DNA of 64,000 nt from Candidatus Magasanikbacteria bacterium GW2011_GWC2_37_14 (GCA_000990355.1 LBSX01000005.1:4584-68583), one strand, 5' to 3'; positions 7,849 through 43,201 are shown, numbered from the stretch's first letter. A program made the numbers and translations. The notes: generated by a model not told the origin, from the letters alone.

Positions 7849-7874
7849 TTACCTTGAGTTTATCACAATTGTCT

Positions 7875-9206
7875 ATGATCCAGCAAATTATTGATCTCCA
7901 TATCCACTCCAAATACTCCCGGGCGTGTAGTAAGAGTTTGGAATTGTCAGAAATTGCCAAGGCTTGTGCTATTCGTGGGGTAGATATTGTAGCAACAGGG
8001 GATTTTACCCATCCTAAGTGGTTTGAACATATAAAGACAAGTTTGGTGGAGGAAAATGAAGGGGTTTATAAATTGAAGGCTCCCACTCCCCCTACCCCCT
8101 CTCGGGCAGAGGGGGACAGTGAAACCCGTTTCATTATTGGTACAGAATTATCGTGCATTAAAAAACACAAAGACAAAACTCGAAGAATTCATGTGTGTGT
8201 TTTTGCTCCCAATATTGAAGTGGCAGAAAAATTTAATAACAAATTAGAAACAATGGGTTTTAATTTACGTTCTGATGGTCGGCCAATTTTAGGTTTAACA
8301 GTAAAACAGTTGTTAGAAATTATGTTAGAGACTGATGAACGAATGATTATGATTCCCGCCCATGCTTGGACGCCGTGGTTTGGTATTTTTGGTTCCAAAG
8401 GTGGCTATAATAGTTTAGAAGAAGCTTTTGAAGAATTAACGCCAAAGATTTTTGCAATTGAAACTGGTTTATCTAGTGACCCACCAATGAATTGGAGGCT
8501 TAGTAAATTGGATAAAATTGCACTAGTATCCAATTCTGATGCTCATAGTTTGGAAAAAATTGGGCGTGAAGCCAATGTTTTGGAATTTGTAGATGAAAAA
8601 GCCATTACTTATGAAAATATTTTTAACGTCATTAAGGAGAGTTGCCACGTAAAATCTGCTTCATCAGCAGATCACGTGGCTGGAAAGTTACTCTATACAA
8701 TAGAGTTCTTTCCAGAAGAAGGAAAGTATCATTATGATGGTCATGCGAATTGTAAATTTGTTTGTGCACCAGAAGAAAGTAGAAAATTGAAAAATATTTG
8801 TCCTAAGTGTAAAAAAGAATTAGTAATTGGAGTAATGAATCGCGTGACGGAGTTGGCTGACAGAACAGAAGAAGAAGCAAAAAAAATAAAACACGTTCCA
8901 TTTAAAAGTCTGGTACCCTTGCCAGAAATTATTGCTGATTGTTTTAATTGTGGAGTGAGTACCAAGAGAGTAAAAGAAGTATATAATAAGTTAATTAAAA
9001 AGTTAGGTAATGAATTTAATATTTTATTAAATATTGATACGCAAGAAATTGCGTTTACTTCAGAACCAATCATTGGTGAAGCAGTTGAGCGAGTAAGAAC
9101 TGGTAAAATTTATGTACGGCCTGGTTATGATGGCGAGTTTGGAGTAGTAAAAGTGTTTAGTGATGAGGAAAGAGTTGGCAAAAAACAAATAGGCCTTGAG
9201 TTATAA
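7875..9206 (+). CDS. PHP-domain metal-dependent phosphoesterase family protein with C-terminal Cys4 cluster
   Basis: DLHIHSKYS PHP motif, HAWTPW, CKFVC..CPKC; contains in-frame palindromic insertion at 8081-8118. Confidence 0.6.
   Translation: MIQQIIDLHIHSKYSRACSKSLELSEIAKACAIRGVDIVATGDFTHPKWFEHIKTSLVEENEGVYKLKAPTPPTPSRAEGDSETRFIIGTELSCIKKHKDKTRRIHVCVFAPNIEVAEKFNNKLETMGFNLRSDGRPILGLTVKQLLEIMLETDERMIMIPAHAWTPWFGIFGSKGGYNSLEEAFEELTPKIFAIETGLSSDPPMNWRLSKLDKIALVSNSDAHSLEKIGREANVLEFVDEKAITYENIFNVIKESCHVKSASSADHVAGKLLYTIEFFPEEGKYHYDGHANCKFVCAPEESRKLKNICPKCKKELVIGVMNRVTELADRTEEEAKKIKHVPFKSLVPLPEIIADCFNCGVSTKRVKEVYNKLIKKLGNEFNILLNIDTQEIAFTSEPIIGEAVERVRTGKIYVRPGYDGEFGVVKVFSDEERVGKKQIGLEL
8081..8118 (+). 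repeat. GC-rich palindromic mini-element (core CCCCTCTCGGGCAGAGGGG) inserted in frame in CDS
   Basis: encodes APTPPTPSRAEGD; near-identical elements in three other CDS. Confidence 0.7.
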
Positions 9207-9212
9207 CTGTCT

Positions 9213-9268
9213 GTCATGCTGAATTTATTTCAGCATCTCAGGGGATCCTGAAATAAATTCAGGATGAC
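9213..9268. repeat. double-hairpin repeat (copy 2 of 4266-4334 family)
   Basis: GTCATGCTGAATTTATTTCAGCATCTC ... GATCCTGAAATAAATTCAGGATGAC. Confidence 0.65.
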
Positions 9269-9277
9269 ACAAATAAC

Positions 9278-9310
9278 AAAACCCTGTACCAGAACGGTAC
9301 AGGGTTTTTT
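9278..9310. terminator. bidirectional rho-independent terminator
   Basis: AAACCCTGTACC-AGAA-CGGTACAGGGTTTTTT with A/T runs on both sides; sits between convergent genes. Confidence 0.6.
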
Positions 9311-9316
9311 AGAAAA

Positions 9317-9469
9317 TTATTTTCTCTTTTTTGCTTTTTTAGCAACTTTTCGTTTAGCTACTTTTTTAACAGCTTTCTTTTTTGCTTTCTTAACAGTCTT
9401 TCTTACCACCTTTTTAGCTTTTTTAACTTTTCTAACAACTTTCTTTTTTGCTTTTTTAACTTTTTTCAT
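9317..9469 (-). CDS. histone H1-like lysine/alanine-rich basic DNA-binding protein (50 aa)
   Basis: MKKVKKAKKKVVRKVKKAKK...; strong RBS AAAGGGGGTGG upstream of ATG at 9469; terminator downstream. Confidence 0.55.
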   Translation of the reverse strand: MKKVKKAKKKVVRKVKKAKKVVRKTVKKAKKKAVKKVAKRKVAKKAKKRK

Positions 9470-9736
9470 ATTGCCACCCCCTTTCAAAAGAAGGCACATA
9501 TTTTGTTGTGACCATGGTGCACACCAAAATTTTTTATTGTGCAAATTGTACAGGACAAGCATCGCTGTAAATTTTTTCTACTTATGTGTATAGTATAAAG
9601 AATTTTTTTGTTTTTGGAAATAGTTTTTGGTATTTTAACTGTGCATAACTATTTTAAAAATAATTTTTTATAAAATTAATATATTTTTTTATTTTTTATA
9701 AAATTTTTTTAAAAAATATTTTATAATAAAGGGGTC

Positions 9737-9765
9737 TTGATTTTTTTTGCAAAATCTGATATAGT
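9737..9765 (+). promoter_or_regulatory. sigma70-like promoter TTGATT-17-TATAGT upstream of tRNA pair
   Basis: in very AT-rich region 9600-9780. Confidence 0.45.
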
Positions 9766-9788
9766 CTCATTATCTAAAATTTTGCTAT

Positions 9789-9860
9789 GCGTCCATAGCT
9801 CAGCGGTAGAGCACCACCCTTATAAGGTGGCCGTCGATGGTTCAAATCCATCTGGACGCA
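9789..9860 (+). tRNA. tRNA with anticodon UAU (putative tRNA-Ile, AUA-decoding)
   Basis: 72-nt cloverleaf folded by hand: 7-bp acceptor GCGTCCA/TGGACGC, anticodon stem CCACC/GGTGG, loop CTTATAA, T-loop TTCAAAT; no encoded CCA. Confidence 0.75.
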
Positions 9861-9868
9861 CATCTTTC

Positions 9869-9940
9869 GCTCTCGTCGTTCAATGGATAGGACGCCAGCC
9901 TCCGAAGTTGGTGATGCGCGTTCGATTCGCGCCGAGAGCA
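9869..9940 (+). tRNA. tRNA-Arg (anticodon CCG)
   Basis: 72-nt cloverleaf: acceptor GCTCTCG/CGAGAGC, anticodon loop CTCCGAA, T-arm GCGCG-TTCGATT-CGCGC. Confidence 0.75.
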
Positions 9941-9999
9941 CAACTAAAGTTCTCCGCCTATGGCGGAAATTCCTGTCGGGGGTACTAATAGAAATTATT

Positions 10000-11025
10000 A
10001 TGATAAGTAAAAATAAAAAAATTATTATAAAAGATTTAGATAGCAAAATTCGTTTGGATGTTTTTTTGACTGAAAAACTAAAATTAACTCGTTCTAAAAT
10101 TCAAAAATTGATTGAGCAAAAATTAATTTTGTTAAACAAAGAATTACCTAAAAAAACTGGTACCATGATTTTGAATGGTGATGAGATTGAAATTATTAAA
10201 CCAGTAATTGTTAAAAAAATTATAACCAATAAAATAGAAAAAAATTTGAAAACAGAAATTGCTAATTTGCCAATTGAAATTGTCGCCGAAACTAGTGATT
10301 ATTTGGTGTTAAATAAACCAGCTGGTATATTGGTCCATCCAACCGAAGCCGGAGAAGAAAATACATTGGTAAATTGGTTGCTAACAAAGTATCCCAAAAT
10401 AAAAAAAGTTGGTGACTCCCACTCCCCCCACACCCCCTCTCGGGCAGAGGGGAAAAACATAAGACCTGGTATTGTTCATCGTTTGGATAAAGAAGCTTCG
10501 GGATTATTGGTAATTGCCAAAACTCAGGCTATGTTTGAACATTTAAAAAAACAATTTCAAAATAGAGAGATAAATAAGGAATATTTAGTTTTGGTACATG
10601 GTACAGTACAAAAAAATTATGATCAAATTGATTTTGAAATAGATCGTGGTCATGATGGTAAAATGGTGGCTCGGCCCAAAACTGATAAATTTAAAGTAAA
10701 GAATGTAGAAAAAATTCAAGAAGGCAAAGAGGCTTTGACCGAGTTTGTAATAGAAAAGAATTATGTTCGTTATACTTTGCTTCGTGTAAAAATTTTTACT
10801 GGTCGTACCAATCAAATTCGGGTACATATGATGGCTTACAGTCACCCAGTAGTTGGTGATAAATTATATTTTAATAAAAGATTAAATAGAAAACGAGATA
10901 CAGAATTAAACAGAGTATTTTTGCATGCTGTAAAGCTTGGTTTTACTGATTTAAATGGTTATGAGCAAACTTTTACAAGTAAATTGCCCAAAGAATTGGA
11001 AAGTTTTTTAAAAGACTTAAATTAA
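10000..11025 (+). CDS. RluA/RluD-family 23S rRNA pseudouridine synthase (S4 domain + PUS)
   Basis: LDVFLTEKL...SKIQKLI S4 motif, HRLDKEASGLLVIAKT catalytic motif; track ORF start 9883 lies inside tRNA, so start set at MISKNK; in-frame insertion at 10417-10452. Confidence 0.85.
   Translation: MISKNKKIIIKDLDSKIRLDVFLTEKLKLTRSKIQKLIEQKLILLNKELPKKTGTMILNGDEIEIIKPVIVKKIITNKIEKNLKTEIANLPIEIVAETSDYLVLNKPAGILVHPTEAGEENTLVNWLLTKYPKIKKVGDSHSPHTPSRAEGKNIRPGIVHRLDKEASGLLVIAKTQAMFEHLKKQFQNREINKEYLVLVHGTVQKNYDQIDFEIDRGHDGKMVARPKTDKFKVKNVEKIQEGKEALTEFVIEKNYVRYTLLRVKIFTGRTNQIRVHMMAYSHPVVGDKLYFNKRLNRKRDTELNRVFLHAVKLGFTDLNGYEQTFTSKLPKELESFLKDLN
10417..10452 (+). repeat. GC-rich palindromic mini-element inserted in frame (encodes DSHSPHTPSRAEGK)
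   Basis: TCCCACTCCCCCCACACCCCCTCTCGGGCAGAGGGG; same family as 8081. Confidence 0.7.
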
Positions 11026-11026
11026 T

Positions 11027-11620
11027 ATGTCTAAAAAAATTTTGGTAATTGCTGGCCCCACTGGTTCTGGAGAAAGTACAGTTACTAGAGAATTAATAAA
11101 AAGATATCCTATTTTTACGAGGTTGGTTACTGCTACCACTCGTGAACCACGTCTCAATGAAAAAGATGGACAAGATTATTATTTTTTTTCTGAAGAAGAA
11201 TTTAAAAAAGAAGTGACAATTGGCAATATTATTGAACATACTTTTGTAACTGGTCGGGCTGTATATTATGGCACTTATAAACCGGATTTAGAACAAAAAC
11301 TTAATGCTGGTTTTAATATTATTGTTAATCCAGATGTGGTTGGGGCCAGGTATTACAAAAAAAATTATGAGGCTACTACTATTTTTATTAAAACCGAATC
11401 AATTAGTGTTTTGGAAAAGCGTCTTAAGGGACGGGATCCCAACATTAGTGAAGTGGAGTTAAAAAGGCGTTTAGAGGCGGCTAAATATGAATTGGATAAT
11501 GAAGAGAGTTTTTATGATTATGTATTGGTAAATAAAGATAATAAATTAGAGGAAGTTTTGACTGAAATTGTAGAAATTTTGCAAAAAGAAGGTTATATTT
11601 TAGCCCTCCCCCCTAGGTAG
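11027..11620 (+). CDS. gmk: guanylate kinase
   Basis: GPTGSGEST P-loop, TTREPR motif. Confidence 0.9.
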   Translation: MSKKILVIAGPTGSGESTVTRELIKRYPIFTRLVTATTREPRLNEKDGQDYYFFSEEEFKKEVTIGNIIEHTFVTGRAVYYGTYKPDLEQKLNAGFNIIVNPDVVGARYYKKNYEATTIFIKTESISVLEKRLKGRDPNISEVELKRRLEAAKYELDNEESFYDYVLVNKDNKLEEVLTEIVEILQKEGYILALPPR

Positions 11621-11731
11621 ATAGGAAAAATTTAGGCTCTTGACTTTTTTTGGGTTTTATAGTAACATAACGTCACTTTATGTATAACTGACGTTGGCAT
11701 TCTAGACCAACCTCTCATTAACAATATTAAT

Positions 11732-12166
11732 ATGAATGAAGATAATAGAACAAATTTAGCTCCTGGCATGATTATTAAAGTCCACCAGAAGATTAAAGAA
11801 ACCAATACCAAAGGTGAAGAAAAAGAACGTATTCAGGTTTTTGAAGGTATGGTAATTGCGGTAAAACATGGTAAAGAACCAGGTGCTACTGTAACCGTAA
11901 GAAAGATCTCCAATAGTGTAGGTGTAGAGAAAATTTTCCCTATTCATTCGCCAGTGGTTGAAAAAATCGAAGTAGTGCGCCAAGTAAAGGTGCGCCAGGC
12001 TCGCCCTTACTATTTGCGTGACTATAAAAAGAAATTAAAAGAAATTAAAGGTAATAAAGTAGAAAAGGTAGACAACGAAATATTAAAGAACAAAAAAGAA
12101 ATTGAACCAGTAGACATTTTGCCAGAAGTAATAGAAGAAAAAGTAGTAGAAGAAACTAAAGAATAA
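11732..12166 (+). CDS. rplS: 50S ribosomal protein L19 with C-terminal K/E-rich extension
   Basis: [12 protein letters not shown]...[29 protein letters not shown] matches L19 core. Confidence 0.9.
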
Positions 12167-12170
12167 AATA

Positions 12171-12195
12171 AAAGCCGCGTTCATCGCGGCTTTTA
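12171..12195 (+). terminator. rho-independent terminator after rplS
   Basis: AAAGCCGCG-TTCAT-CGCGGCTTTT. Confidence 0.6.
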
Positions 12196-12214
12196 AAATC
12201 TCTGGATTTGTGAT

Positions 12215-12285
12215 AATCTGGGTGGGTAAGGAGGAGAGAGAGGTGGCTTCCGCCCAAGGCGGACCAGCCTCGGGCTGGGAGTGGT
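12215..12285. repeat. GC-rich mini-hairpin cluster (CCGCCCAAGGCGG, CCAGCCTCGGGCTGG)
   Basis: GC-rich island in AT-rich spacer, same style as hairpin arrays at 12641, 48336, 57627. Confidence 0.4.
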
Positions 12286-12302
12286 TATATTAATAATTTG
12301 GT

Positions 12303-12545
12303 ATGCATTACGTTTACATTTTGAAAAGTGTAAAAAGTGGAAAATTGTATAAGGGTTTTACTAATGATTTAAAAAGAAGAATAAAAGAACATAATTTAGG
12401 TAATAGCGAATTTACATCCAATAATGGTCCTTGGAAGTTGGTGTATTATGAGGCTTTTTTGTCAAAAAAGGACGCGCAACAAGAAGAAATTTTTCTAAAA
12501 ACAGGTAAGGGGAGAGAAAGAATAAAATATTTACTAACAATATAA
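12303..12545 (+). CDS. GIY-YIG nuclease family protein
   Basis: HYVYILKSVKSGKLYKGFTNDLKRRIKEHN GIY-YIG motif. Confidence 0.8.
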   Translation: MHYVYILKSVKSGKLYKGFTNDLKRRIKEHNLGNSEFTSNNGPWKLVYYEAFLSKKDAQQEEIFLKTGKGRERIKYLLTI

Positions 12546-12550
12546 ATAAT

Positions 12551-12637
12551 GGAGGCGTGGCTGAGTGGTCGAAAGCACCGCATTCGAAACGCGGCAGACC
12601 TTTACCGGTCTCAGGGGTTCAAATCCTCTCGCCTCCG
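12551..12637 (+). tRNA. tRNA-Ser (anticodon CGA), class II with long variable arm
   Basis: acceptor GGAGGCG/CGCCTCC, anticodon loop TTCGAAA, long variable arm CAGACCTTTACCGGTCTCAGG, T-loop TTCAAAT. Confidence 0.75.
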
Positions 12638-12640
12638 CAT

Positions 12641-12690
12641 GGGTTCCCCGAGATAAACTCGGGGTCCCGGGTTAATCCCGGGATAAATCC
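12641..12690. repeat. GC-rich hairpin modules CCCCGAGATAAACTCGGGG and CCCGGGTTAATCCCGGG
   Basis: first module nearly identical to CCCCGAGTATACGGGG in the 57627-57790 array. Confidence 0.5.
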
Positions 12691-12709
12691 CGCCCTTTCC
12701 TCATAATAT

Positions 12710-12980
12710 ATGTCCATAAAAATCACCTATTTTGTACATGGTACAACAACCGACAACGAAAAAGGCCTGGCGACTGGCTGGGAGCAGGGAGAGTTGTCGG
12801 CTTTGGGGATTGAACAATCCAAAAAATTATCAAAACAAACATATTGCCATTGTGGCTCATCAAGCTCCGCAACTAGCCTTAGATGTAATTTTGAGTGGTA
12901 AAACCTGGGAACAGGCAATTGACGAAGATTGGCGAAAGCAGAAAGCCTGGCAACCAGGGTGGGGTTATATTATTGAATAA
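12710..12980 (+). pseudogene. histidine phosphatase (phosphoglycerate mutase-like) family remnant, frameshifted and internally deleted
   Basis: N-terminal ITYFVHGTTTDNEKGLATGW...LGIEQ in one frame and HIAIVAHQAPQLALDVIL C-terminal motif in another frame; combined only about 90 aa versus about 200 for intact family. Confidence 0.45.
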
Positions 12981-13732
12981 TGCTAAATTTTATGAACATC
13001 ATAAAAACTAAAAGTTTTGAACTTGCTGTAAATATAAAAGGTGATCCAAGTTCCACAAAACTGGCAATTTTAATTCCGGGTAGATTGGATACCAAAGATT
13101 ATTGTAACTTTGTTAGTCATGCTAATTATTTAGTCAGTAAAAGTTTTTTTGTTGTGGCGTTTGATCCACCAGGTACATGGGATAGCCCAGGGGGAATTGA
13201 TATTTATTCCACGACAAATTATATTATAGCGGTTAATGAATTAATTGAATATTTTGGTAATAAATCAACATTATTATTGGGACACAGTCGGGGGGCAGCG
13301 ACCGCTATTCTTGCTGGTGCACCCAATCCAAATGTCATTGGTATAGTTTCTATAATAGCAAACTACGGCAAACCAACTCCTCTGGATCAAGAGTCTTTAC
13401 AAAAGGGTTTTAAGATTTCTTATCGAGATCTTCCCCCAGGAAATTCCCCAACGAAAAAACAAAAAGAATTTTTATTACCTATTAGTTATTGGGAGGATGG
13501 GAAAAATTACGATGCTGGTGATTCTTTAAAAAAATGTTCAAAACCAAAACTACTAGTTTATGGGTCGAAAGATGAGTTTACTACTGTTGAGGAGGTAGAA
13601 AAATTGTATACACTAATTCCTGAACCAAAAATGTTAAAATTAGTTGATTCCACACATGATTATCGTTATTTTCCAGAAGCCATTGAAGAAATTAATTTAG
13701 TGATTGGCAAATTTCTTGATTCAGCAATCTAA
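12980..13732 (+). CDS. alpha/beta hydrolase fold protein
   Basis: GHSRG nucleophile elbow, 250 aa. Confidence 0.65.
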   Translation: MLNFMNIIKTKSFELAVNIKGDPSSTKLAILIPGRLDTKDYCNFVSHANYLVSKSFFVVAFDPPGTWDSPGGIDIYSTTNYIIAVNELIEYFGNKSTLLLGHSRGAATAILAGAPNPNVIGIVSIIANYGKPTPLDQESLQKGFKISYRDLPPGNSPTKKQKEFLLPISYWEDGKNYDAGDSLKKCSKPKLLVYGSKDEFTTVEEVEKLYTLIPEPKMLKLVDSTHDYRYFPEAIEEINLVIGKFLDSAI

Positions 13733-13761
13733 ATATTTTTAAAACAGTTTAAAATAATTTT

Positions 13762-14364
13762 ATGCCAGAAGAAAAAAGCCCAGCCTCCGCTAAAGCTACG
13801 GCGGGTAAAGAAAATTTATATACAGCCAGTGAAATGAAGAAAGTTTTGCAAAATGCCGAAATGGCTTTGTGGTTAGATAGTTATAATAATATCTTTTCTG
13901 ATTTTGACCCCCGACCTTTTGCCGAACGAGCTTTGTCCGATGATTTTATATTGGAAATGAAAAAAGTCGCTCGCGATCGCGGTAAAGATAGTTATGAATT
14001 AAAATTTTTATTAGCCCCAGAAACAAGAAATCACCATCAGGAAGAAGTTATTAAAGAACGTTTACATCATTTTTTTATTGAACAACACCATCAATATATT
14101 AAGGAACGAAAAGGGATAATTGCTCGTGGTTTTTTGTTTGTTATTTTGGGTGTAGTTTTTATGTCAGTTGCTTCATTTTTGTTGACCTTTTTTGCTAATG
14201 AAAAATTTTTATTTAATTTTCTCGTTATACTTTTAGAGCCAGCTGGCTGGTTTTTGTTTTGGGAAGGTTTGTCACACGCTATGTATAAATCAGAGCAAGT
14301 AAATCCAGAAATAAAATTTTATCATAAAATGGCACATAGTAAGATTGAATTTATTTCGTATTAA
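13762..14364 (+). CDS. hypothetical membrane protein (two C-terminal TM helices)
   Basis: ORF with hydrophobic segments GFLFVILGVVFMSVASFLL and FLVILLEPAGWFLFW; no recognised family. Confidence 0.4.
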   Translation: MPEEKSPASAKATAGKENLYTASEMKKVLQNAEMALWLDSYNNIFSDFDPRPFAERALSDDFILEMKKVARDRGKDSYELKFLLAPETRNHHQEEVIKERLHHFFIEQHHQYIKERKGIIARGFLFVILGVVFMSVASFLLTFFANEKFLFNFLVILLEPAGWFLFWEGLSHAMYKSEQVNPEIKFYHKMAHSKIEFISY

Positions 14365-14368
14365 TTAT

Positions 14369-15118: not shown

Positions 15119-15360
15119 ACTATTTTTTGAATAAAAAGTGTTAGCCAAAGACTGGCAGTAAAAAAACCTAGTAAAGCGGAAAATTTTAAAGAAAGTGTTA
15201 AATAAACAATTGACATTACATACATGCCAATAGAATTTGGTAGTGAGGTAGAAATGACAATAGATCCTTTTTTATTTTTAAATCCGTAGTAAACTTGTGG
15301 TATCAAAGCAAAAACAAACATTATACTGATAATTGTGATAATTATATCTTGCCAAAGCAT
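15109..15360 (-). CDS. SemiSWEET-like PQ-loop sugar transporter (83 aa, 3 TM)
   Basis: ALIPQVYYGFKNKKGS PQ-loop in TM1 followed by basic patch, size and topology of bacterial SemiSWEETs. Confidence 0.45.
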   Translation of the reverse strand: MLWQDIIITIISIMFVFALIPQVYYGFKNKKGSIVISTSLPNSIGMYVMSIVYLTLSLKFSALLGFFTASLWLTLFIQKIVYK

Positions 15361-15392
15361 AAAAAATAGCTTAATAATATATTAATTATAGC

Positions 15393-16643
15393 ATGTTAAG
15401 AGTAAAAATAGAAAAGCTGGTATTTGGTGGGCAAGCTTTGGGTCGAGTAGATGACAAAGCTGTTTTTGTATGGAATGCTTTGCCTGGTGAAGAAGTAGAA
15501 GTGGAATTAAAAAAAAATAAACATAATTTTGCCGAAGGTGTAGTCAAAGAAATTATTACTCGCTCTCCCGACCGTTTGGAACCACGCGAAAATCATTTTT
15601 TGTCTTGTAGTCCTTGGCAAATAATGAGTTTTGCTACAGAAAATAAATGGAAAGTGGAGATGTCAATTGAGACATATCAAAAGTTTGCTGGTTTAACAGT
15701 TACTGATTTAGAAATTGTTAGTGATGGGGTAGAGTATGGATATAGAAATAAAATGGAGTATAGTTTTACAGAAGAAAATAGTGTAATTAGTCTGGCTTTT
15801 TTTGAACGTAATGGCAAAAAACATTTAGCCATTCCCAAATGTGAATTGGCCAGTGAAGCAATAAATAAAGTGGCTTTGGAACTTTTAGCTTGGGTAAATG
15901 AAAATAAAATTTCGCTTCGTAGTTTAAAAACAATGATTATCCGTTCGAATCAAAAAGGTGAAGTTTTGGCTGGGTTGTTTATAAAAGATCGTTTAGAATT
16001 TAATGATTATCCAAAGTTAACAAATAATTTAGTTGGCTTAACTATCTATTACTCTACTCATAAAAGTCCGGCTTCGGTGCCAACCGCGGTTTTATACAAA
16101 ATTGGTCAGGACTATTTAGAAGAAGATTTGTTTGGTGTAAAACTTCGTTATGGTTTGTTTAGTTTTTTTCAAATTAATGTGCCAATTTTTAAACAAGCTT
16201 TAGCCGAGATTAAAAATCACCTAAGCAACAATGATAAAGTAGTGGATTATTATTCTGGGGTAGGGGCAATTGGTTTGCCTGTTGGGGCAAAAGAGCTAGT
16301 AGAAAGCAATCCGGAAGCAGTGGAATTTGCCAAAATAAATATTGAGTTAAATAAAATCAAAGCCGAAGCAATTTGTGCTCCATCGGAAAAAATGGTGGAG
16401 TTAATTACTGCAGAAAAAACTATTATTTTTGATCCACCTAGGGCTGGGTTGGATAAAAGGGTAGTTGATCAAGTTTTAAATAAATTACCCAAGAAAATTA
16501 TTTATTTATCTTGTGACATTGCTACTCAAGCACGAGATTTAGGATTATTAAAAGAAGCTTACGAAATTAAATTTTTAAAATTATATAATTTCTTTCCACG
16601 CACAGCTCATATTGAAGGGCTTTGTGTTTTAGAAAAAAAATAA
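15393..16643 (+). CDS. RNA (uracil-C5)-methyltransferase, TrmA/RlmD family (TRAM + class I SAM MTase)
   Basis: N-terminal TRAM-like barrel (VEKLVFGGQALGR), C-terminal DPPRAGL motif IV. Confidence 0.7.
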   Translation: MLRVKIEKLVFGGQALGRVDDKAVFVWNALPGEEVEVELKKNKHNFAEGVVKEIITRSPDRLEPRENHFLSCSPWQIMSFATENKWKVEMSIETYQKFAGLTVTDLEIVSDGVEYGYRNKMEYSFTEENSVISLAFFERNGKKHLAIPKCELASEAINKVALELLAWVNENKISLRSLKTMIIRSNQKGEVLAGLFIKDRLEFNDYPKLTNNLVGLTIYYSTHKSPASVPTAVLYKIGQDYLEEDLFGVKLRYGLFSFFQINVPIFKQALAEIKNHLSNNDKVVDYYSGVGAIGLPVGAKELVESNPEAVEFAKINIELNKIKAEAICAPSEKMVELITAEKTIIFDPPRAGLDKRVVDQVLNKLPKKIIYLSCDIATQARDLGLLKEAYEIKFLKLYNFFPRTAHIEGLCVLEKK

Positions 16644-16644
16644 T

Positions 16645-17847
16645 ATGAATAAAACAGGCATTGTTTTAAAACCAGGTCGTGATAAAGCCATAAAAAATAA
16701 ACATCATTGGATTTTTTCCGGAGCAGTTTCATATATTTCCGAATTTAGTAATGGTGAAATTTTGCCAGTTTATAATTCTACTGGAGAATTACTAGGCCAT
16801 GCTTATTGCAACAAGAATACTTCTATTTTGGGAAGAATGATTAGTTTTGGCAATACTGATCCAGTCAAAGAATTAGAAAAAAATTTGGAAAGCGCGATTG
16901 CGATGCGTAAAAGTTTGTTTAATGAAAAAATAACTAATTGTTATCGTCTGGTTAATTCCGAGGGTGACAATATTCCGGGTTTAATTATAGATAAATATGC
17001 TGGTGTTTTGGTAATTCAAAGTGCGACAGCGGGTATTGATTTATTAAAACCACAAATTGTAGAATTTTTAGTAAAAAAATTAAAACCCGTGGCAATTTAT
17101 GAAAAATCCGATTTATCATCTCGCCGTGAAGAAGGTTTGACTATGAGCGAAGGTTTGGTATATGGTAAAGAAGTAAAGAATGTAGAAGTAATTGAAAATG
17201 GTTTAAAGTTTGTAGTGGATTTGGTGAATAGCCAAAAAACTGGTTTTTTTCTTGATCAGCGGGAAATGCGGGTTTGGGCAGGCGAATTAGCCAAAAACAA
17301 ATCTGTGCTTAATTGTTTTGCCTATACTGGAGGTTTTTCTTTGTATGCCGTTCAAGGCGGGGCTAAACAGGTAGACACAGTAGATATTTCTAGTGAAGCA
17401 ATACAGAGAGCCGAGGAAAATTTTAAATTAAATGGTTTTCTCCCGCCTCCCCCTACCCCCTCCTCGGGCATGAGGGGGCAATTTGGATTTATTACGGCTG
17501 ACATTTTTGAATTTTTACGAGCTGAAAAATTAAATTATGATTTAATTATTTTGGATCCGCCAGCTTTTGCTAAAAAGAAAACCGATGTTATCAAAGCTTG
17601 TCGAGGCTACAAAGATATTAATCGCTTGGCACTACAAAAAATGCCAGCTGGTAGTATTTTAATCACTTCTTCTTGTTCTTATCATGTAGACGAAAAACTC
17701 TTCCAAACTGTAGTTTTTCAAGCTGCGGTAGAAGCAAACAGAAAGGTCCGGATAATTGGTCGTCATCATTTAGCACCCGACCACCCAATAAATATCTTTC
17801 ATCCCGAGGGGGAATATTTAAAAAGTTTGGTTTTGTACATAGAGTAA
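16645..17847 (+). CDS. rlmI: 23S rRNA (cytosine-C5)-methyltransferase RlmI-like (PUA + SAM MTase)
   Basis: LNCFAYTGGFS motif I, ILDPPAFAKKK motif IV; in-frame insertion at 17441-17478. Confidence 0.8.
   Translation: MNKTGIVLKPGRDKAIKNKHHWIFSGAVSYISEFSNGEILPVYNSTGELLGHAYCNKNTSILGRMISFGNTDPVKELEKNLESAIAMRKSLFNEKITNCYRLVNSEGDNIPGLIIDKYAGVLVIQSATAGIDLLKPQIVEFLVKKLKPVAIYEKSDLSSRREEGLTMSEGLVYGKEVKNVEVIENGLKFVVDLVNSQKTGFFLDQREMRVWAGELAKNKSVLNCFAYTGGFSLYAVQGGAKQVDTVDISSEAIQRAEENFKLNGFLPPPPTPSSGMRGQFGFITADIFEFLRAEKLNYDLIILDPPAFAKKKTDVIKACRGYKDINRLALQKMPAGSILITSSCSYHVDEKLFQTVVFQAAVEANRKVRIIGRHHLAPDHPINIFHPEGEYLKSLVLYIE
17441..17478 (+). repeat. GC-rich palindromic mini-element inserted in frame (encodes LPPPPTPSSGMRGQ)
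   Basis: TCCCGCCTCCCCCTACCCCCTCCTCGGGCATGAGGGGG. Confidence 0.7.
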
Positions 17848-17880
17848 TTTTGTAAGAAAAAGGCTATAATATCGTCATAT

Positions 17881-18402
17881 ATGTTGAAAGTGCAAAACAG
17901 CTTTATGGAAAAGGAATTTTTGGCAGTTTATGATAAACACGCCGACGCGGTTTTTCGCTTTTGCTACCTGCGTTTGTTTGAGCGTGAATTGGCCAAGGAT
18001 TTTATGCAACAAGCGTTCCTTAAAACTTGGGAGTATCTTGGTAAAAATAGTAATAAAGAAATAGATAATTTAAAAGCTTTTGTTTTTAAAGTGGCTCGGA
18101 ATTTAATTATTGATTATAGCCGGGCAAAAAAAGAAAATCTTTCGGTAGAGACAATGCTTGAAAATGGTAATGATTTAATGGCCAAAGCTGAAGATTTAAA
18201 TTTAAAAATTGATTTACAAGAAGTTAAAAAAGTTTTAAATAATTTAGAAGAAATGTATAGTGAAGTTTTAAATTTGAGATATATAGAAGGATTTCGTCCA
18301 AAAGAAATAGCGTTAATTTTAAATGAATCAGAAGATGTGGTATCGGTAAGAATACATCGGGGATTAAAAAAGATGAAAGAAATAATTAAAGAAATTGATT
18401 AA
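17881..18402 (+). CDS. ECF (sigma-70 family group 4) RNA polymerase sigma factor
   Basis: region 2 (FKVARNLIIDYSR) and region 4 (LRYIEGFRPKEIALILNESEDVV). Confidence 0.85.
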   Translation: MLKVQNSFMEKEFLAVYDKHADAVFRFCYLRLFERELAKDFMQQAFLKTWEYLGKNSNKEIDNLKAFVFKVARNLIIDYSRAKKENLSVETMLENGNDLMAKAEDLNLKIDLQEVKKVLNNLEEMYSEVLNLRYIEGFRPKEIALILNESEDVVSVRIHRGLKKMKEIIKEID

Positions 18403-18477
18403 ATTAATTTTCTTGCTGCGGGTTCGCTCCGCTAGGTCCTCGCTACAAAAATAAATTTAATCAATTTCTGCAACAAT

Positions 18478-19776
18478 ATGAAATTTTTTAGAAAATTAAA
18501 ATCTATCAAATTATCTAAAAAAGAAAAACAAAATTTTCGGATAGTTTTGTCTAATTTAATTATGAATAGTGCCGGCTTGTCGGGCGTAGCGGAGCGAAGA
18601 CCGGTAAGAAATTACTATAATTTACGTCATAATAATCAGAAGGTTCCATTCCTTCATTTAATACTTAAACATAATTATATGATAGCAGGTTTGCTTATTG
18701 CCGCTATTTTGGCCATGGGTGGCGGTACTGCCGTGGCAGCCGAAAATTCAGTCCCAGGGGATCTTTTGTATAGAATAAAGACCCAAGTAAATGAAGAAGT
18801 ACGTTCGGCTTTGGCCATTAGTCCAGAAGCGCAAGCCGCTTGGGATGCTAAACGTGCCGAAAGACGTTTGGAAGAAACCGAAAAATTAGCTGGCGAAAAC
18901 AAATTAACTACCTCTACTTCGGAAATGTTGGCTAGCAAGTTTGCAGAATTTTCGCAAAAAGCGACTGATCGTTTACAAAAATTAGAAGACGCAGGAAAAC
19001 TTACTCCGGAACAGGTTCAAAATTTAAAAGCCAATTTTGAAGTGGCAGTAAAAGCTCATGATGAAATTTTATCTAGGATCGAAGAAAAAAAGCAGAATCG
19101 TGGGGAAATGAAAGCAGTAATGGATTCTTTACGTGGACAAGCTTCTACTACTATCAAAGACAGGCTTGAACATGATTTAAAGTTAATTGAAGAAGGAACT
19201 TCTAGTACTCTAAGTAAGGTATCTGAAAACAGAAAAAATGCAGCTCAAAATAAAATTAGCGAAGTGCAAAAATTTATTGATAATAATGATGATAAAGTAA
19301 GTAGTGAGAATAAAGCAGAAGCTGTTAAAAAATTAGCTGAAGCAACTACCTTAGTTACCGAAGGTGACAAATTAGTTATTGAACAAAAATTTGGTGAAGC
19401 AATTATGAAATATAGCGAAGCCCACCGTAAAGCCCAAGAAGCGCAAATGTATTTGACCACCAGATTCCGTTTGGAAAGAAGAATGGAAAGCACCTCTTCT
19501 ACTCCAGCAGTTTTTGCTAGTGGTACTTTGCAGTTTAATAATGAAAAAAGACAAGAAATTTGGGACACTCACGAAGGTTTTAAAAATATGGAAGAGAAGT
19601 TAAAAGAAGAGGTAAAGCAAGCCAGAGAAACCTTTAAAGAAGTTAAACAACAAGAAATGGAAAAAATTAAAGAAGCAATAAAAGCTAATCGTCCTCCAAA
19701 ACCAGAAGATAAGGTTGAAAATGAAGTAGAAAATGAAGATGATAACGGTTCAAGTACAACTTCTACAAATCAATAA
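18478..19776 (+). CDS. DUF5667-like membrane-anchored coiled-coil protein, putative anti-sigma partner of ECF sigma
   Basis: single TM (IAGLLIAAILAMGG), VPGDLLYRIK motif, long coiled coil; position directly downstream of ECF sigma gene. Confidence 0.45.
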   Translation: MKFFRKLKSIKLSKKEKQNFRIVLSNLIMNSAGLSGVAERRPVRNYYNLRHNNQKVPFLHLILKHNYMIAGLLIAAILAMGGGTAVAAENSVPGDLLYRIKTQVNEEVRSALAISPEAQAAWDAKRAERRLEETEKLAGENKLTTSTSEMLASKFAEFSQKATDRLQKLEDAGKLTPEQVQNLKANFEVAVKAHDEILSRIEEKKQNRGEMKAVMDSLRGQASTTIKDRLEHDLKLIEEGTSSTLSKVSENRKNAAQNKISEVQKFIDNNDDKVSSENKAEAVKKLAEATTLVTEGDKLVIEQKFGEAIMKYSEAHRKAQEAQMYLTTRFRLERRMESTSSTPAVFASGTLQFNNEKRQEIWDTHEGFKNMEEKLKEEVKQARETFKEVKQQEMEKIKEAIKANRPPKPEDKVENEVENEDDNGSSTTSTNQ

Positions 19777-19787
19777 AGACAGTAAAT

Positions 19788-19815
19788 AACCCCGGGATGA
19801 ACCCGGGGTTTCTTG
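19788..19815 (+). terminator. rho-independent terminator
   Basis: AACCCCGGG-ATGA-ACCCGGGGTTTCTT. Confidence 0.55.
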
Positions 19816-19865
19816 TCAAAAATAACAAAAACTGCTATATTATTCGGGTATTTAACTTTAATTTT

Positions 19866-20807
19866 ATGGCTATTTTAGTTTCGGGTTCTTTGGCTTATGA
19901 TTATATAATGGATTTTCCCGATAGTTTTAAAAATCATATTTTGCCAAATCAGTTGCATATTTTGAATGTTTGTTTTGTGGTAGATAATTTACAGCGTAAT
20001 TTTGGTGGTACCGCGGGTAATATTGCTTATACCATGAATTTACTTAGTGCTGAGCCTTTAATTTTTGCGCCACTTGGTGAAGATGGTAAAGATTATTTAA
20101 ATTATTTTAAAAAACTTAATTTAAAAACTGATTATATTTTTTTGAGTCAAGAAAAACTTACAGCTTCGGCACATATTACTACGGACAAAGATAATAACCA
20201 AATAACGGCTTTTTATAATGGGGCGTTGATTGAAGGAGAAAAAATAGCAGTGAAAGATTTAAAAGATGACGTGGCTTTTGCTTTAATTTCCCCTACACAA
20301 AAAGAAGTAATGATTAAACATGCCAAAGAATGTTATGAATTGCAAATACCATTTTGTTTTGATCCTGGTCAACAAGTAACTGCTTTTTCGGCTCAAGAAT
20401 TAATGATGGTTATTGGTCAAGCAAAGTTTTTGATTGGCAATGATTATGAATTAAAATTGATTGAAGAAAAAACTGGTTGGGGAGTGTTTGAACTTTTAAA
20501 ACATGTAGAAGTAGTAATTATTACTTTGGGTGAAAAAGGTTCTTTGATAGTTAACAAAGATGGGGCAATAGAAGTGGGTGTTTGTCCTGCAATTTCGGTA
20601 GATGACCCAACCGGAGCTGGGGATGCTTATCGGGCAGGGTTTTTTTCTGCTTTTGTTAAAGGAAAAGATTTAAAAACTTGTGGGCAAGTGGGCGCCGTGG
20701 CTGCAACTTATGCAGTAGAAAATTATGGTACACAAAATCATTGCTTTACTTTGGCAGAGTTTAAAAATCGCTATGAAAAAGCTTTTGTTGAAAATTTAAC
20801 TTGGTAA
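19866..20807 (+). CDS. PfkB-family carbohydrate/nucleoside kinase
   Basis: GGTAGNIAY and DPTGAGDAYRAGF ribokinase-family motifs; start set at MAILVSG. Confidence 0.7.
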   Translation: MAILVSGSLAYDYIMDFPDSFKNHILPNQLHILNVCFVVDNLQRNFGGTAGNIAYTMNLLSAEPLIFAPLGEDGKDYLNYFKKLNLKTDYIFLSQEKLTASAHITTDKDNNQITAFYNGALIEGEKIAVKDLKDDVAFALISPTQKEVMIKHAKECYELQIPFCFDPGQQVTAFSAQELMMVIGQAKFLIGNDYELKLIEEKTGWGVFELLKHVEVVIITLGEKGSLIVNKDGAIEVGVCPAISVDDPTGAGDAYRAGFFSAFVKGKDLKTCGQVGAVAATYAVENYGTQNHCFTLAEFKNRYEKAFVENLTW

Positions 20808-20852
20808 CTGTCATTGCGAGCCCCGTCCGAGCGGGGCGAAGCAATCCCAAGG
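20808..20852. repeat. hairpin repeat GTCATTGCGAG-[CCCCGTCCGAGCGGGG]-CGAAGCAATCCCAAGG
   Basis: second copy with different inner hairpin at 60834-60882; both abut a stop codon. Confidence 0.65.
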
Positions 20853-20903
20853 TATATGAGAGAATACTTTGTTTATATAATGACTAAAATAATTTAATGA
20901 CAT

Positions 20904-22310
20904 ATGATACAAGATTTTAAAGTAAGAGATATTTCGTTGGCAGAATGGGGAAGACGTGAAATACAAATTGCCGAAAAAGAAATGGTCGGTTTAATGGCAA
21001 TTCGTGAAAAGTATAGTAAAACAAAACCCCTGTCCGGAGTAAAGATTATGGGTTCACTCCACATGACTATTCAAACTGCGGTATTGATGGAAACATTAGT
21101 AGCACTTGGCGCCCAAGTTCGTTGGGTATCGTGTAATATTTTTTCTACTCAAGATCATGCTGCTGCCGCGATGGCAGAAGTGGATATTCCGGTTTTTGCT
21201 TGGAAGGGTGAAACATTGGAAGAGTATTGGTGGTGTACCGAAAAAGCCTTAGACTTCGGCAACGGGCAAGGACCAGATATGATTGTTGATGATGGTGGAG
21301 ATGCCACAATGATGATTCACAAAGGGGTAGAAATAGAAGCAGACCCAAGTTTATTGGATGTTGATTATTCTGCCAAAGAAGAAGATCTTAGAGAATTAAT
21401 GAAAAATTTAAAAATAGAATATAAAAAAAATCCAACTCGTTGGACAGAAGTGGCAAAAAAAGTAAAAGGTGTGTCCGAAGAAACTACCACGGGTGTGCAT
21501 CGTTTGTATCAAATGTTTGAAGCAGGAAAATTATTATTTCCCGCTATTAATGTGAATGATTCCGTAACCAAATCTAAGTTTGATAATATTTATGGTTGTC
21601 GCCATTCAGTGGTGGATGGTTTGAATCGAGCCATGGATGTAATGCTTGGTGGGAAAGTGGCCGTAATTTGTGGTTATGGTGATGTAGGTAAAGGTTGTGC
21701 TCAAGCGCTCAAGGGACAAGGTTGCCGGGTAATTGTTACGGAAATTGATCCAATTTGCGCTTTACAAGCAGCAATGGAAGGTTATCAGGTTAAAACAGTA
21801 GAAGATACTTTGGGTGAAGCTGATATCTATGTAACCACTACTGGTAATCGGGATATTATCCGGGTTGAACATATGGAAAAAATGAAAGATCAAGCAGTAG
21901 TGTGTAATATTGGTCATTTTGATAATGAAATTCAAGTAGAAAAATTAAATAAATTAGCTGGTGTGCAAAAAATAAATATCAAACCACAAGTTGATAAATA
22001 TTTATTTCCAAATGGCAATGCTATATATATGTTGGCCGAAGGACGCCTAATGAATTTGGGTTGTGCTACTGGCCATCCAAGCTTTGTAATGAGTAATAGT
22101 TTTGCCAATCAAGTTTTGGCCCAGATTGATTTGTGGGAAAAGAATTACGAAGTTGGTGTGTATCGTTTGGCAAAAGAATTGGATGAAGAAGTTGCGAGGT
22201 TACATCTTGCCAAAATAGGGGTTAAACTTACCAAACTTACAGCTGAGCAGGCTGAATATTTGGGGGTAAAGGTAAATGGGCCGTATAAGGCGGATCATTA
22301 TCGGTATTAA
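20904..22310 (+). CDS. ahcY: adenosylhomocysteinase
   Basis: 468 aa, NAD-binding GYGDVGKG, highly conserved SAHH sequence throughout. Confidence 0.95.
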
Positions 22311-22316
22311 AAAGAC

Positions 22317-23075
22317 ATGCCCATAATGCGCTTGCAAAAATTTATTGCGGACCAAGGAATTTGTTCTCGGCGAAAGGCCGAAGAACTTATTTTGGCTAAA
22401 AAAGTAAAAGTAAATGGAGTAGTAGCCGAAATTGGTTTAAAAATTGACAGTGAGAAAGATAAGGTGGAAGTGGTAAATTTCAATTCTCCCACCACCCCGG
22501 CTTTCAGCCACCCCTCCTCCGGCAGGAGGGGACACGTGTACATTGCCTTGAACAAACCAGTGGGTTTTATTTGTTCGGCAAGTAATGAACAGGGTAAAAC
22601 TGTTTTGGAACTTCTAACAAAAGAAAATTATTTTGGTAAAGAAAAATTAGAAATTAAAGATCGGGTTTATCCCGTTGGCAGGCTAGACAAAGATTCAGAA
22701 GGTTTAGTATTGCTTACGAATGATGGTGAACTTACCAATAAATTAATTCATCCACGTTATCAACATGAAAAAGAATACGAAGTAGGGTTAAACAAACCAT
22801 TGGGAAAACCTGAGGTAAAGATTTTAGAAAATAGTATGGAAATTGGCCCTGGAGAACGTGTTTGGGGAATAAAAATAAAAGATCTTGTTTGCAAAAATGA
22901 TCAAACTATAGCTACAGTGATTTTGCACGAGGGCAAGAATCGTCAAATTAGACGGATGTTTGGTAAATTGGGCTATAAAGTGATGTTTTTACGTCGGGTG
23001 CGTATTGGTAAATTAAAATTAGGCACTTTGCCTTTGGGTAAATGGAAAATGATTGGCAAAATTCAAATAATTTAA
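22317..23075 (+). CDS. RsuA/RluB-family rRNA pseudouridine synthase (S4 domain)
   Basis: RLQKFIADQGICSRRKAEELI S4 motif, GRLDKDSEGLVLLTNDG catalytic motif; in-frame insertion 22487-22531. Confidence 0.85.
   Translation: MPIMRLQKFIADQGICSRRKAEELILAKKVKVNGVVAEIGLKIDSEKDKVEVVNFNSPTTPAFSHPSSGRRGHVYIALNKPVGFICSASNEQGKTVLELLTKENYFGKEKLEIKDRVYPVGRLDKDSEGLVLLTNDGELTNKLIHPRYQHEKEYEVGLNKPLGKPEVKILENSMEIGPGERVWGIKIKDLVCKNDQTIATVILHEGKNRQIRRMFGKLGYKVMFLRRVRIGKLKLGTLPLGKWKMIGKIQII
22487..22531 (+). repeat. GC-rich palindromic mini-element inserted in frame (encodes SPTTPAFSHPSSGRRGH)
   Basis: CCCCTCCTCCGGCAGGAGGGG palindrome core. Confidence 0.7.
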
Positions 23076-35856: not shown

Positions 35857-35887
35857 AAAAAATCCTGATTAAAATCAGGATTTTTTA
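35857..35887. terminator. bidirectional terminator between convergent genes
   Basis: AAAAATCCTGATT-AAA-ATCAGGATTTTTT. Confidence 0.6.
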
Positions 35888-42559: not shown

Positions 42560-42689
42560 AAAAAGAAAGACTAGAGATTATTTATATAAATATTATAACA
42601 TATTTATAACAAAAAGGTTAGGAAGCAAGGTTGACAAAAAAGAATTTTTGGAGTAAAAATAACTTGAACCATCACCAAGTTAGGCAATC

Positions 42690-43013: not shown

Positions 43014-43201
43014 GAGGACCACCATGGTTGCTCGTTCGCCGCCGTTCTTTCACCAAGGGGGAAGCCCCCGACTGCACGATACCGGAGGAACAGTCGGGAA
43101 CAGTCGAAAGATCATCTAGAAATAGGTGGTTTTTTGTTTTTATCTTACATTGACAATTAGGTAAAATTGTGATAAAATAATATTTCAGTTATTTATAAAA
43201 T

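Follow-up and report, generated by a model that had tools for sequence, protein, structure and literature searches.

GC-rich elements in a housekeeping region of a CPR bacterium

The stretch of DNA examined here, referred to as the window, comprises 64,000 nt of a contig from Candidatus Magasanikbacteria bacterium GW2011_GWC2_37_14 (GCA_000990355.1, LBSX01000005.1:4584-68583) and is a gene-dense housekeeping region, with a GC content of 36%, of a bacterium of the Candidate Phyla Radiation (CPR). Short GC-rich elements interrupt conserved genes of this region without breaking their reading frames, and their architecture probably places them among the intrastrand triplex repeats. The identical contig was recovered independently in ENA, Logan, JGI, and NCBI assemblies. 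The genes that carry elements are as follows, the fifth being an addition to the four originally recognized:

7875-9206, plus strand: host gene 1, conserved PHP-like protein (HxH, MJ0043-type); start possibly at 7854
9997-11025, plus strand: host gene 2, RluD-like pseudouridine synthase (Pfam S4 and PseudoU_synth_2)
16645-17847, plus strand: host gene 3, RlmI-type rRNA methyltransferase (Pfam PUA_3 and Methyltrans_SAM)
22317-23075, plus strand: host gene 4, RsuA/RluB/RluF-type pseudouridine synthase (Pfam S4 and PseudoU_synth_2)
35875-37101, minus strand: host gene 5, SAM-dependent methyltransferase, UPF0020/RMKL-like (Pfam UPF0020/Methyltransf_31), with two elements

The RluD-like, RlmI, and RsuA-like identities given in the original prediction, which was made from the sequence alone, are borne out by Pfam; the PHP-like host has no Pfam match, though it is a widespread and conserved protein (911 representative homologs at E < 1e-30). 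Two tRNA genes lie at 9789-9940, just 5′ of the RluD-like gene, and because the longest open reading frame (ORF) call for that gene (9883-11025) overlaps the second of them, the start is probably the ATG at 9997. A PDB sequence search with the methyltransferase of host gene 5 gave no match.

The four segments of the original prediction are present at the positions given there, in the four coding sequences, each inside an uninterrupted ORF. They measure 37-47 nt and are indeed GC-rich relative to the window, at 72-77% rather than the figure of above 75% first given. The exact 19-mer core CCCCTCTCGGGCAGAGGGG occurs twice, compared with 0.01 expected, and a looser pattern allowing 1-nt indels returns exactly four copies, all on the plus strand. 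The 1-nt indels and site-dependent reading frames are as had been described, with the frames of the 5′ halves differing. The family was taken to have four members and has at least 11 in the window: six of the 11 elements located are intragenic, and ten were found by a scan, whereas the copy at 48406-48488 was missed because its first loop is long and was parsed by eye. In the list, Y and R denote the pyrimidine and purine stems of a hairpin, and "arm" a C-rich block that tracks R:

8080-8116, plus strand: short form, PHP-like gene; CTCCC, arm ACTCCCCC, linker TA, Y CCCCCTCT, loop CGGGC, R AGAGGGGG; arm versus R 8/8, zero mismatches; encodes APTPPTPSRAEG
10416-10453, plus strand: short form, RluD-like gene; CTCCC, arm ACTCCCCCC, linker ACA, Y CCCCTCT, loop CGGGC, R AGAGGGG; arm versus R 7/7; encodes SHSPHTPSRAEG, directly 5′ of the catalytic RPGIVHRLD motif
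17440-17478, plus strand: short form, RlmI; CTCCC, arm GCCTCCCCC, linker TA, Y CCCCCTCCT, loop CGGGC, R ATGAGGGGG; arm versus R 8/9, one stem mismatch; encodes LPPPPTPSSGMRG
22486-22532, plus strand: long form, RsuA/RluB-like gene; CTCCC, arm ACCACCCC, mini-hairpin GGCT-TTC-AGCC, A, Y CCCCTCCT, loop CCGGC, R AGGAGGGG; arm versus R 8/8; encodes SPTTPAFSHPSSGRRG in the linker between the S4 and catalytic domains; the form of the cross-phylum consensus
36463-36524, plus strand: methyltransferase (host gene 5); arm AACTCCCCC, 28-nt hairpin linker GCCTGCC..GGCAGGC, Y CCCCCTCTT, loop GGT, R AAAAGGGGG
36865-36897, plus strand: short form, methyltransferase (host gene 5); arm AACCCCCC, linker TTCG, Y CCCCCCTT, loop TATT, R AAGGGGGG
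48406-48488, minus strand: probably intergenic; Y CCCCCTC, hairpin-bearing loop, R GAGGGGG, hairpin linker, mirror arm GGGGGGAG; G-rich strand on plus
48516-48562, plus strand: long form, probably intergenic; arm ACTCCACC, hairpin GTCCGCC-CTG-GGCGGGC, Y CCTCCTCT, loop TGGTA, R AGAGGAGG
57627-57657, minus strand: short form, intergenic; Y TTCCCCCT, loop TAGAAA, R AGGGGGAA, linker T, mirror arm AAGGGGGT; G-rich strand on plus
57669-57712, minus strand: long form, intergenic; Y CCCTCCCCT, loop TGT, R AGGGGAGG, hairpin CCCCG-AGTATA-CGGGG, mirror arm GGTGGGGT; G-rich strand on plus
57732-57781, plus strand: long form, intergenic; arm AACCCCCAC, hairpin CTCCGAC..GTCGGAG, Y CTCCCCCT, loop ACG, R AGGGGGAG

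For the four original elements the strand listed is that of the C-rich reading, and the triplex-competent G-rich strand is the opposite (minus) strand. The two methyltransferase elements are in frame in a minus-strand ORF, of which the G-rich strand is the sense strand, and encode SPFYQEGAGLPDMPSRQAGGVAEGAGV and, at 36865-36897, IPPLIKGGEGG. The C-rich strand lies on the plus strand in six of the six intragenic copies regardless of the strand of the host gene, and the GC skew of the window is positive throughout; this orientation bias is absent among 96 copies in other genomes. Two mixed-orientation clusters sit in probable intergenic DNA, at 48406-48562 (two copies) and 57627-57781 (three copies). 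At 48449-48478 the hairpin linker repeats almost exactly, though inverted, the linker at 36473-36500, 12 kb away.

Three-part architecture and covariation

In terms of architecture, the elements were first described as palindromic, which holds for the core and not for the whole: rather than plain palindromes, they are mirror-plus-inverted repeats in three parts, made up of a C-rich arm, a Y/R hairpin, and, between the two in some copies, a variable small hairpin. The arm tracks the purine stem in parallel register, with C opposite G and either A or T opposite A. Read along the G-rich strand, the order is Y stem, a loop of 3-5 nt, R stem, a linker of 2-4 nt (replaced in the long form by the small hairpin), and a G/T(A)-rich mirror of R. 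In the four original copies the Y/R stems are 7-9 bp long and contain at most one mismatch; the small hairpin is present in the RsuA copy and missing from the other three.

A scan of the window finds 11 Y/R hairpins, ten of which have an arm with 0-1 mismatch on exactly one side, and these represent eight different R sequences; shuffled windows yield 0.1 Y/R hairpins and 0.01 with an arm. At ~140 other loci, an exact arm accompanies 228 unique copies with 32 distinct purine stems. Across these 228 copies the arm residue opposite G is always C, and opposite A it is A (77%), T (15%), or G (7%), choices that correspond to T.A-T and A.A-T triads on the G-rich strand. When arms and stems are compared between families, the diagonal of the matrix stands out, each arm scoring 0.45-0.67 on its own pattern, where the maximum is near 0.5, and ~0-0.2 on the others. 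The hairpin between arm and Y covaries as well (34 different stems are seen among 75 copies, most of them 5-6 bp long and capped by a TTC or TGC triloop), and a DNA fold of the RsuA copy gives two hairpins with z = -2.8 and -3.0. Since a mirror repeat is not made by ordinary duplication or inversion, the covariation argues for selection on Hoogsteen-type pairing.

Insertion into host proteins

The view that the segments are insertions located in loops or linkers agrees with comparison to homologs. The RlmI segment is a gap against E. coli RlmI (3c0k) and against 1wxw, the RluD-like segment is a gap against E. coli RluD (1v9f) directly before the catalytic HRLD motif, and the RsuA-type segment is a gap in the S4-catalytic linker against RluF (3dh3). 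Two close RlmI proteins, P0002 (87% identical) and P0003 (85% identical), lack exactly 11 residues, and at the DNA level the filled and empty alleles differ by 33 nt, TTTTC[TCCCGCC...CATGA]GGGGGCAA, with no target-site duplication. Likewise, no direct repeats flank any of the four original copies. In an AlphaFold model of RlmI (mean predicted local distance difference test score, pLDDT, of 87), the insert falls in a coil (residues 263-279) between a helix (250-262) and a strand (280-284); for the 10-residue block 271-280 the mean pLDDT is 58, with residues 272-274 under 50. Homologs naturally differ in the length of both the PHP-like loop and the RsuA linker, and close stand-alone PHP-like homologs have a short loop at the element site. 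The proposal that only frame-compatible insertions persist is in keeping with these data: the inserts are stop-free and the frame is kept in four intact genes, which fits purifying selection.

Turnover at orthologous sites

At orthologous sites the elements come and go. The same element occupies the same codon of RlmI in P0001, P0004, and P0005 and is absent from P0002, P0003, P0006, P0007, and P0009, of which P0006, P0007, and P0009 group with P0004 and P0005 in the RlmI tree. Because presence is patchy across the tree, several gains, losses, or conversions are needed at this site. The three RlmI element copies differ at 2-4 of 39 nt (90-95% identical), compared with 71-77% nucleotide identity for the host genes. 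It had been proposed that the same peptide in orthologs from unrelated taxa would speak against insertion. In part this is what is seen, since orthologs P0004, P0005, and P0215 do carry the element at the same codon; all three are from related CPR bacteria, and the patchy pattern points to elements repeatedly gained, lost, or replaced and not to a peptide inherited from an ancestor.

The other hosts point the same way. At the corresponding position, the nearest RsuA ortholog (78% identical) carries an element of a different triplex family, ACCCCACCC-TCA-CCCTCCCCT-CAC-AGGGGAGGG. The RluD loop KVGDS-xx-RPGIVHRLD is a hot spot, with GC-element-like peptides in at least 15 CPR homologs; in its DNA, L140 has the same element, L139 has one of the same superfamily that is oppositely oriented, and L141 has a GC hairpin of unrelated sequence. 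The PHP-like loop of a Saccharibacteria ortholog (L028, 54% identity) also carries elements. A metagenome scan for syntenic relatives returned four loci only, and empty sites were obtained for RlmI only.

Unrelated structured inserts occur in the same loops in other CPR lineages, namely in the PHP-like protein (L131:2186-3571), RluD (L141:1124-2167), and RlmI (P0021, P0028, and P0031); they include a palindrome, GACTTCAG...CTGAAGTC, a hairpin, GTCCGC..GCGGAC, and the peptides EVPSRAERSEVEG and SRGTTRDPDFTSG. The host loops are thus general landing or tolerance sites. An RlmI homolog in a metagenome-assembled genome (MAG) of 43% GC (L008:5987-7453) has several insertions relative to the window protein, including two triplex-type elements at other loops with the peptides ATPATPVALGDHPSSGRRGQ and SPPARGGARGGGG.

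Distribution in other genomes

The elements are restricted neither to this genome nor to four genes: the titles of the records in which they are found name many phyla, and their host genes are of many kinds. A hairpin-pattern scan with one genome per species gave at least 120 loci, nearly all of which share the upstream arm, though the pattern did not demand one. The consensus reads CTCCCACCACCCC, a variable small hairpin, CA, CCCCTCCT-CSGGC-AGGAGGGG, A, and most copies in other phyla are of the long form. The AGGAGGGG family is near-invariant across phyla, with record titles that include Burkholderiales, Gammaproteobacteria, Acidobacteria, Prevotella, Bacteroides, and several CPR phyla; one such record (L035) is titled Bacteroides sp. 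51 and has no MAG label. In other low-GC genomes, intragenic copies lie in either orientation in DNA polymerase I (PolA), UvrB, PheT (twice), CysRS, YchF, a beta-CASP RNase, RlmI, AcrB, PfkB, and other conserved genes. The predominance of RNA-modification enzymes among the hosts holds within the window, where four of five such genes carry an element compared with one of ~57 other genes (Fisher p = 4e-5, post hoc); 15 intragenic copies in other genomes do not repeat the pattern, having RlmI as their single RNA-modification host. The window set consists of 9997-11025, 16645-17847, 22317-23075, and 35875-37101, all with an element, and 15393-16643 as the fifth gene.

A pattern scan of viral contigs gave only four matches, which indicates that the elements are not phage-borne. 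A blastn search of plasmid and phage collections with a 65-nt consensus gave no match, possibly owing to low-complexity masking. Rfam 15, at gathering and E-value thresholds, finds three tRNAs only in the window, and on eight element-bearing loci only sub-threshold matches at chance level. No published description of the element was found: a full-text sequence search gave unrelated primer matches only, and keyword searches for CPR and in-frame palindromes gave none. In one Burkholderiales MAG (L037:144-320), an inverted element doublet is bracketed by GCCTAACAAAATGA ... TCATTTTGTTAGGC, an arrangement reminiscent of integron attC with its R''/L'' ... L'/R' core sites; the AATTCATTTTGTTAG flanks are found repeatedly in Burkholderiales MAGs, and L014 is among the other loci that have them. 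A strict R''/L''...L'/R' test was passed by the single locus L037, and the attC likeness is noted only in passing.

The means of spread is not apparent from neighboring genes. Pfam finds no transposase, integrase, or reverse transcriptase domain among the predicted ORFs of the window, several of which have no match of any kind, and all-against-all clustering of the ORFs of 120 element-bearing loci gives no linked gene family in more than eight loci. A replication-strand test based on local GC skew divides the copies 50 versus 46, which does not support a signature of lagging-strand single-stranded DNA (ssDNA) insertion.

Proposed explanation and alternatives

Taken together, the best explanation, to which we assign a probability of roughly 0.75, is that each of the four segments is one copy of a non-autonomous DNA repeat, dispersed in the genome, that belongs to the class of intrastrand triplex motifs. 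Intrastrand triplex motifs were catalogued (ITxF) in 5246 prokaryotic genomes and plasmids by Holder et al. in 2015 (PMC4666352). Their E. coli representative, TM_ECO (BoxC), has the form CCCTCNCCC N3-6 GGGNGAGGG N3 GGGNGAGGG and folds as ssDNA into a stable triplex by circular dichroism (CD) and nuclear magnetic resonance (NMR) (PMC4666352). By analogy, a single G-rich strand of the present elements would fold back twice to give a purine-motif triplex with G.G-C, T.A-T, and A.A-T triads; we infer such folding from the covariation together with what CD and NMR have shown for TM_ECO. Gains, losses, and replacements at orthologous sites leave no target-site duplication. Because no element-encoded or neighboring enzyme was found, we infer that they spread in trans or through replication, repair, or recombination provoked by their structure. 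In a gene-dense genome of 36% GC, many copies would land in genes, and the persisting ones would be those whose length is divisible by three, that contain no stop codon, and that sit in a surface loop or an inter-domain linker able to accommodate them; their presumed translation products would be Pro/Ser/Gly/Arg-rich loops that need have no function themselves.

Several observations weigh against this explanation. The Watson-Crick hairpin energy of the three short copies is no better than that of shuffled sequences (z = -0.4 to -1.3, ViennaRNA, which models Watson-Crick hairpins only and no Hoogsteen pairing), and folding energy was dropped as a discriminator for the short forms. Two conserved features, the 5′ CTCCC and the CGGGC loop, are left unaccounted for by the triplex model. 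In the commonest family, parallel and antiparallel registers are indistinguishable because the main arm CTCCCACCACCCC is nearly mirror-symmetric, and it is the asymmetric families that carry the parallel-register argument. The long form, in which loop 2 is a covarying hairpin of 12-20 nt (the RsuA copy and most copies in other phyla), lies outside the published class II definition (stem 6-15 nt, at most one mismatch, loops 1-6 nt; PMC4666352) and would be missed by its search because loops are limited to 1-6 nt. Even for TM_ECO, in vivo dimethyl sulfate (DMS) footprinting did not reveal a stable triplex (PMC4666352). As for the insertions, mobility is read from presence/absence patterns rather than from an observed event, and the "empty" RlmI allele retains CGGGGG, which is unusual for the genome. 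That allele is not a clean pre-insertion site; it may be a deletion derivative, with CGG GGG as a footprint. Finally, the inserts are presumably translated, which is an assumption of the model.

The same structural data must be weighed against the possibility that the G-rich strand forms a G-quadruplex or a G.G fold-back instead of a triplex, the mirror symmetry then being an arrangement of G-tracts. At least four G-runs are available on the G-rich strand, and a quadruplex is possible in principle for such sequences (Holder et al., PMC4666352). However, a quadruplex does not need a Y stem, which is always present and exactly complementary to R; the A and T positions covary too; and the 18 imino NMR signals of TM_ECO fit a triplex and not a quadruplex (PMC4666352), so that we regard this fold as quite unlikely. 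It is very unlikely that the RNA is the functional molecule, as a cis-regulatory or stabilizing module in which an anti-Shine-Dalgarno (SD)-like CCUCC pairs with an SD-like GGAGG and which is maintained by transcript-level selection. The main stem CCCCUCCU/AGGAGGGG would allow such pairing, the small hairpin covaries as in structured RNAs, and the mRNA strand is the C-rich strand in the four original genes. Nevertheless, Rfam gives no match at gathering or E-value thresholds, both orientations relative to host genes occur, and the SD-like sequence is missing in many families (e.g., AGGGGGAG and AAGGGGGG). Moreover, opposite A-U pairs the arm carries A, not U, at 77% of positions, as suits a purine-motif triplex formed in DNA by the opposite strand, and purine-motif triplexes are reported not to form in RNA (PMC4666352).

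In terms of mobility, an unlikely alternative is that these are ordinary palindromes of the repetitive extragenic palindromic (REP), REP-doublet (REPIN), or Rickettsia palindromic element (RPE) type, moved as ssDNA hairpins by a REP-associated tyrosine transposase (RAYT, an HUH Y1 transposase) encoded elsewhere, with the C-rich arm as the tail read by the enzyme. The hairpin and the lack of target-site duplication agree with this view, REPIN-like inverted doublets occur in other genomes (e.g., L007, L013, L034, and L037), and in-frame intragenic REPs and RPEs are documented (PMC3733652). Yet there is no conserved GTAG or CGTC tag, CTAC being found in two copies only and on the wrong side of the hairpin, and membership in the GTAG-tagged REPs was rejected; the linker between arm and hairpin itself varies (TAA, TGA, TAC, ACA, and others). 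Pfam detects no Y1 transposase among the predicted ORFs of the window, none recurs near 120 copies, the 50 versus 46 split shows no orientation bias relative to GC skew, and the covariation of the arm with 32 purine stems has no role in this model. Strongly disfavored is the notion that the segments are locally evolved low-complexity Pro/Gly linkers selected as protein, or assembly artifacts. The natural length variation of the RsuA linker and PHP loop would agree with it, but the same nucleotide sequence recurs in different frames, in different orientations, and between genes; the GC content of the elements is 72-77%, against 36% for the genome; the contig is identical in four sets of assemblies; and the family is also present in the Bacteroides sp. 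51 record.

Returning to the triplex repeat explanation, a wider form of it can be offered tentatively, as a possibility that we consider doubtful. The elements could be a cross-phylum class of selfish DNA defined by structure, in which the triplex or G.G fold itself drives copying, for instance through replication stalling, template switching, or ectopic conversion, without a dedicated transposase. Such elements would return again and again to the same protein loops, namely the pre-catalytic loop of RluD, the linker of RsuA, and, in both Magasanikbacteria and Saccharibacteria, the PHP-like loop, with one family replacing another, and would thereby continually remodel surface loops of core enzymes in reduced genomes.

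Other features of the window

Three ORFs (42631-43119, 48721-49101, and 56884-57621) have GC contents of 57-60% in this 36% GC genome and look like recent horizontal acquisitions; one has no Pfam match, one has TSP_3 repeats, and one is a formyltransferase. The element clusters adjoin two of the three. A PIF1-like helicase gene is located at 45143-46852. PIF1-family helicases unwind G-rich non-B DNA, and a connection of this gene to element tolerance is speculative. Further GC-rich or structured features are an intergenic palindrome, CATTGCGAGCCCCG..CGGGGCGAAGCAATC, at 20807-20852; a structured G-rich intergenic stretch at 12233-12287 that terminates in GGGAGTGGTTA; an ORF-like region of 45% GC at 12732-12980 that adjoins a tRNA gene and has no Pfam or Rfam match; and GC islands around the start of a DUF5667 gene at 18414-18604.

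Comparison with known repeat systems

The architecture is reminiscent above all of class II triplex motifs (TM), for which PIT elements is an earlier name (Hoyne and Maher, 2000, as cited in PMC4666352). In both, a Y stem, a complementary R stem, and a G-rich reverse-Hoogsteen mirror block, 3′ of R and antiparallel to it, lie on one strand; stems are 7-9 nt and loops short; copies are highly conserved and GC-rich in AT-richer genomes; and inverted doublets occur, no transposase is known, and there are ties to local gain, loss, or rearrangement. The short forms fall within the ITxF limits, with loop 1 of 5 nt and loop 2 of 2-4 nt. TM_ECO has 3610 occurrences in 262 proteobacterial genomes, is always intergenic in E. 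coli K-12, showed no associated transposase, and is tied to local genomic instability; triplex motifs as such are linked to polymerase arrest and local instability (PMC4666352). The present elements differ in their stem (AGGAGGGG or AGAGGGG rather than GGGNGAGGG), in their extra conserved 5′ CTCCC, and in the long form with its mini-hairpin in loop 2. They differ as well in setting: TM_ECO is intergenic and proteobacterial, whereas six of the 11 window copies are intragenic and in frame in a CPR host. They do not follow the BoxC/TM_ECO consensus and are a different sequence family of the same class; TM_ECO-like stems, GGGAGAGGG with arm CCCTCACCC, are present among the other loci examined.

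Intragenic REPs and REPINs resemble the present elements as short GC-rich hairpin repeats, often in inverted dimers, with hosts among DNA repair proteins, tRNA synthetases, and pseudouridine synthases; some GTAG/CGTC REPs lie within genes and lengthen the protein by 20-30 residues (Di Nocera et al., 2013, PMC3733652). RPEs are mentioned in the same paper, with RPE-4 and RPE-6 placed within the CGTC-tagged REPs. The elements here differ in having a defining mirror arm and no GTAG/CGTC tag, and no RAYT was found in the ORFs of the window. The combination of terminal inverted repeats and target-site duplication that marks a MITE (miniature inverted-repeat transposable element) is absent.

RPEs were reportedly described by Ogata et al. 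in 2000; RPE-1 is ~100-150 bp long and Rickettsia-specific. The original likening of the elements to RPEs holds for their behavior, in that both are repeated structured elements in frame in housekeeping genes of a small genome, with loop peptides tolerated where the protein still folds. It does not extend to their kind: RPEs, compared here by description only, are described as palindromes with no mirror or triplex in the definition, and the mirror rule puts the present elements in the PIT/TM/BoxC class rather than with RPEs or REPs. A more distant likeness is to mitochondrial GC clusters and byps, organellar GC-rich structured mini-elements that invade AT-rich coding sequence. These are unrelated in sequence, and the ribosome skips over byps, whereas the present elements keep the frame and contain no stop codon. 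The coding palindromes of Nematomorpha (PMC6649704) likewise are GC-rich structured mini-elements in AT-rich coding sequence.

Triplex repeats have been seen as intergenic curiosities of enterobacteria and cyanobacteria, with function and spread not known. The filled, empty, and replaced sites described here form a natural series for working out the insertion mechanism, and a share of the odd Pro/Ser/Gly/Arg-rich insertions in CPR proteins, which distort alignments, domain calls, and structure predictions, would be explained by them. The three-strand covariation in 32 stem families is comparative evidence for in vivo selection on a Hoogsteen-paired DNA structure, unusually direct evidence of a kind that the biophysics of TM_ECO could not establish. 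Compared with the known systems, then, the elements are probably repeats of the intrastrand triplex class in a setting new for it: they lie within core genes of CPR bacteria, are apparently translated, and turn over there.

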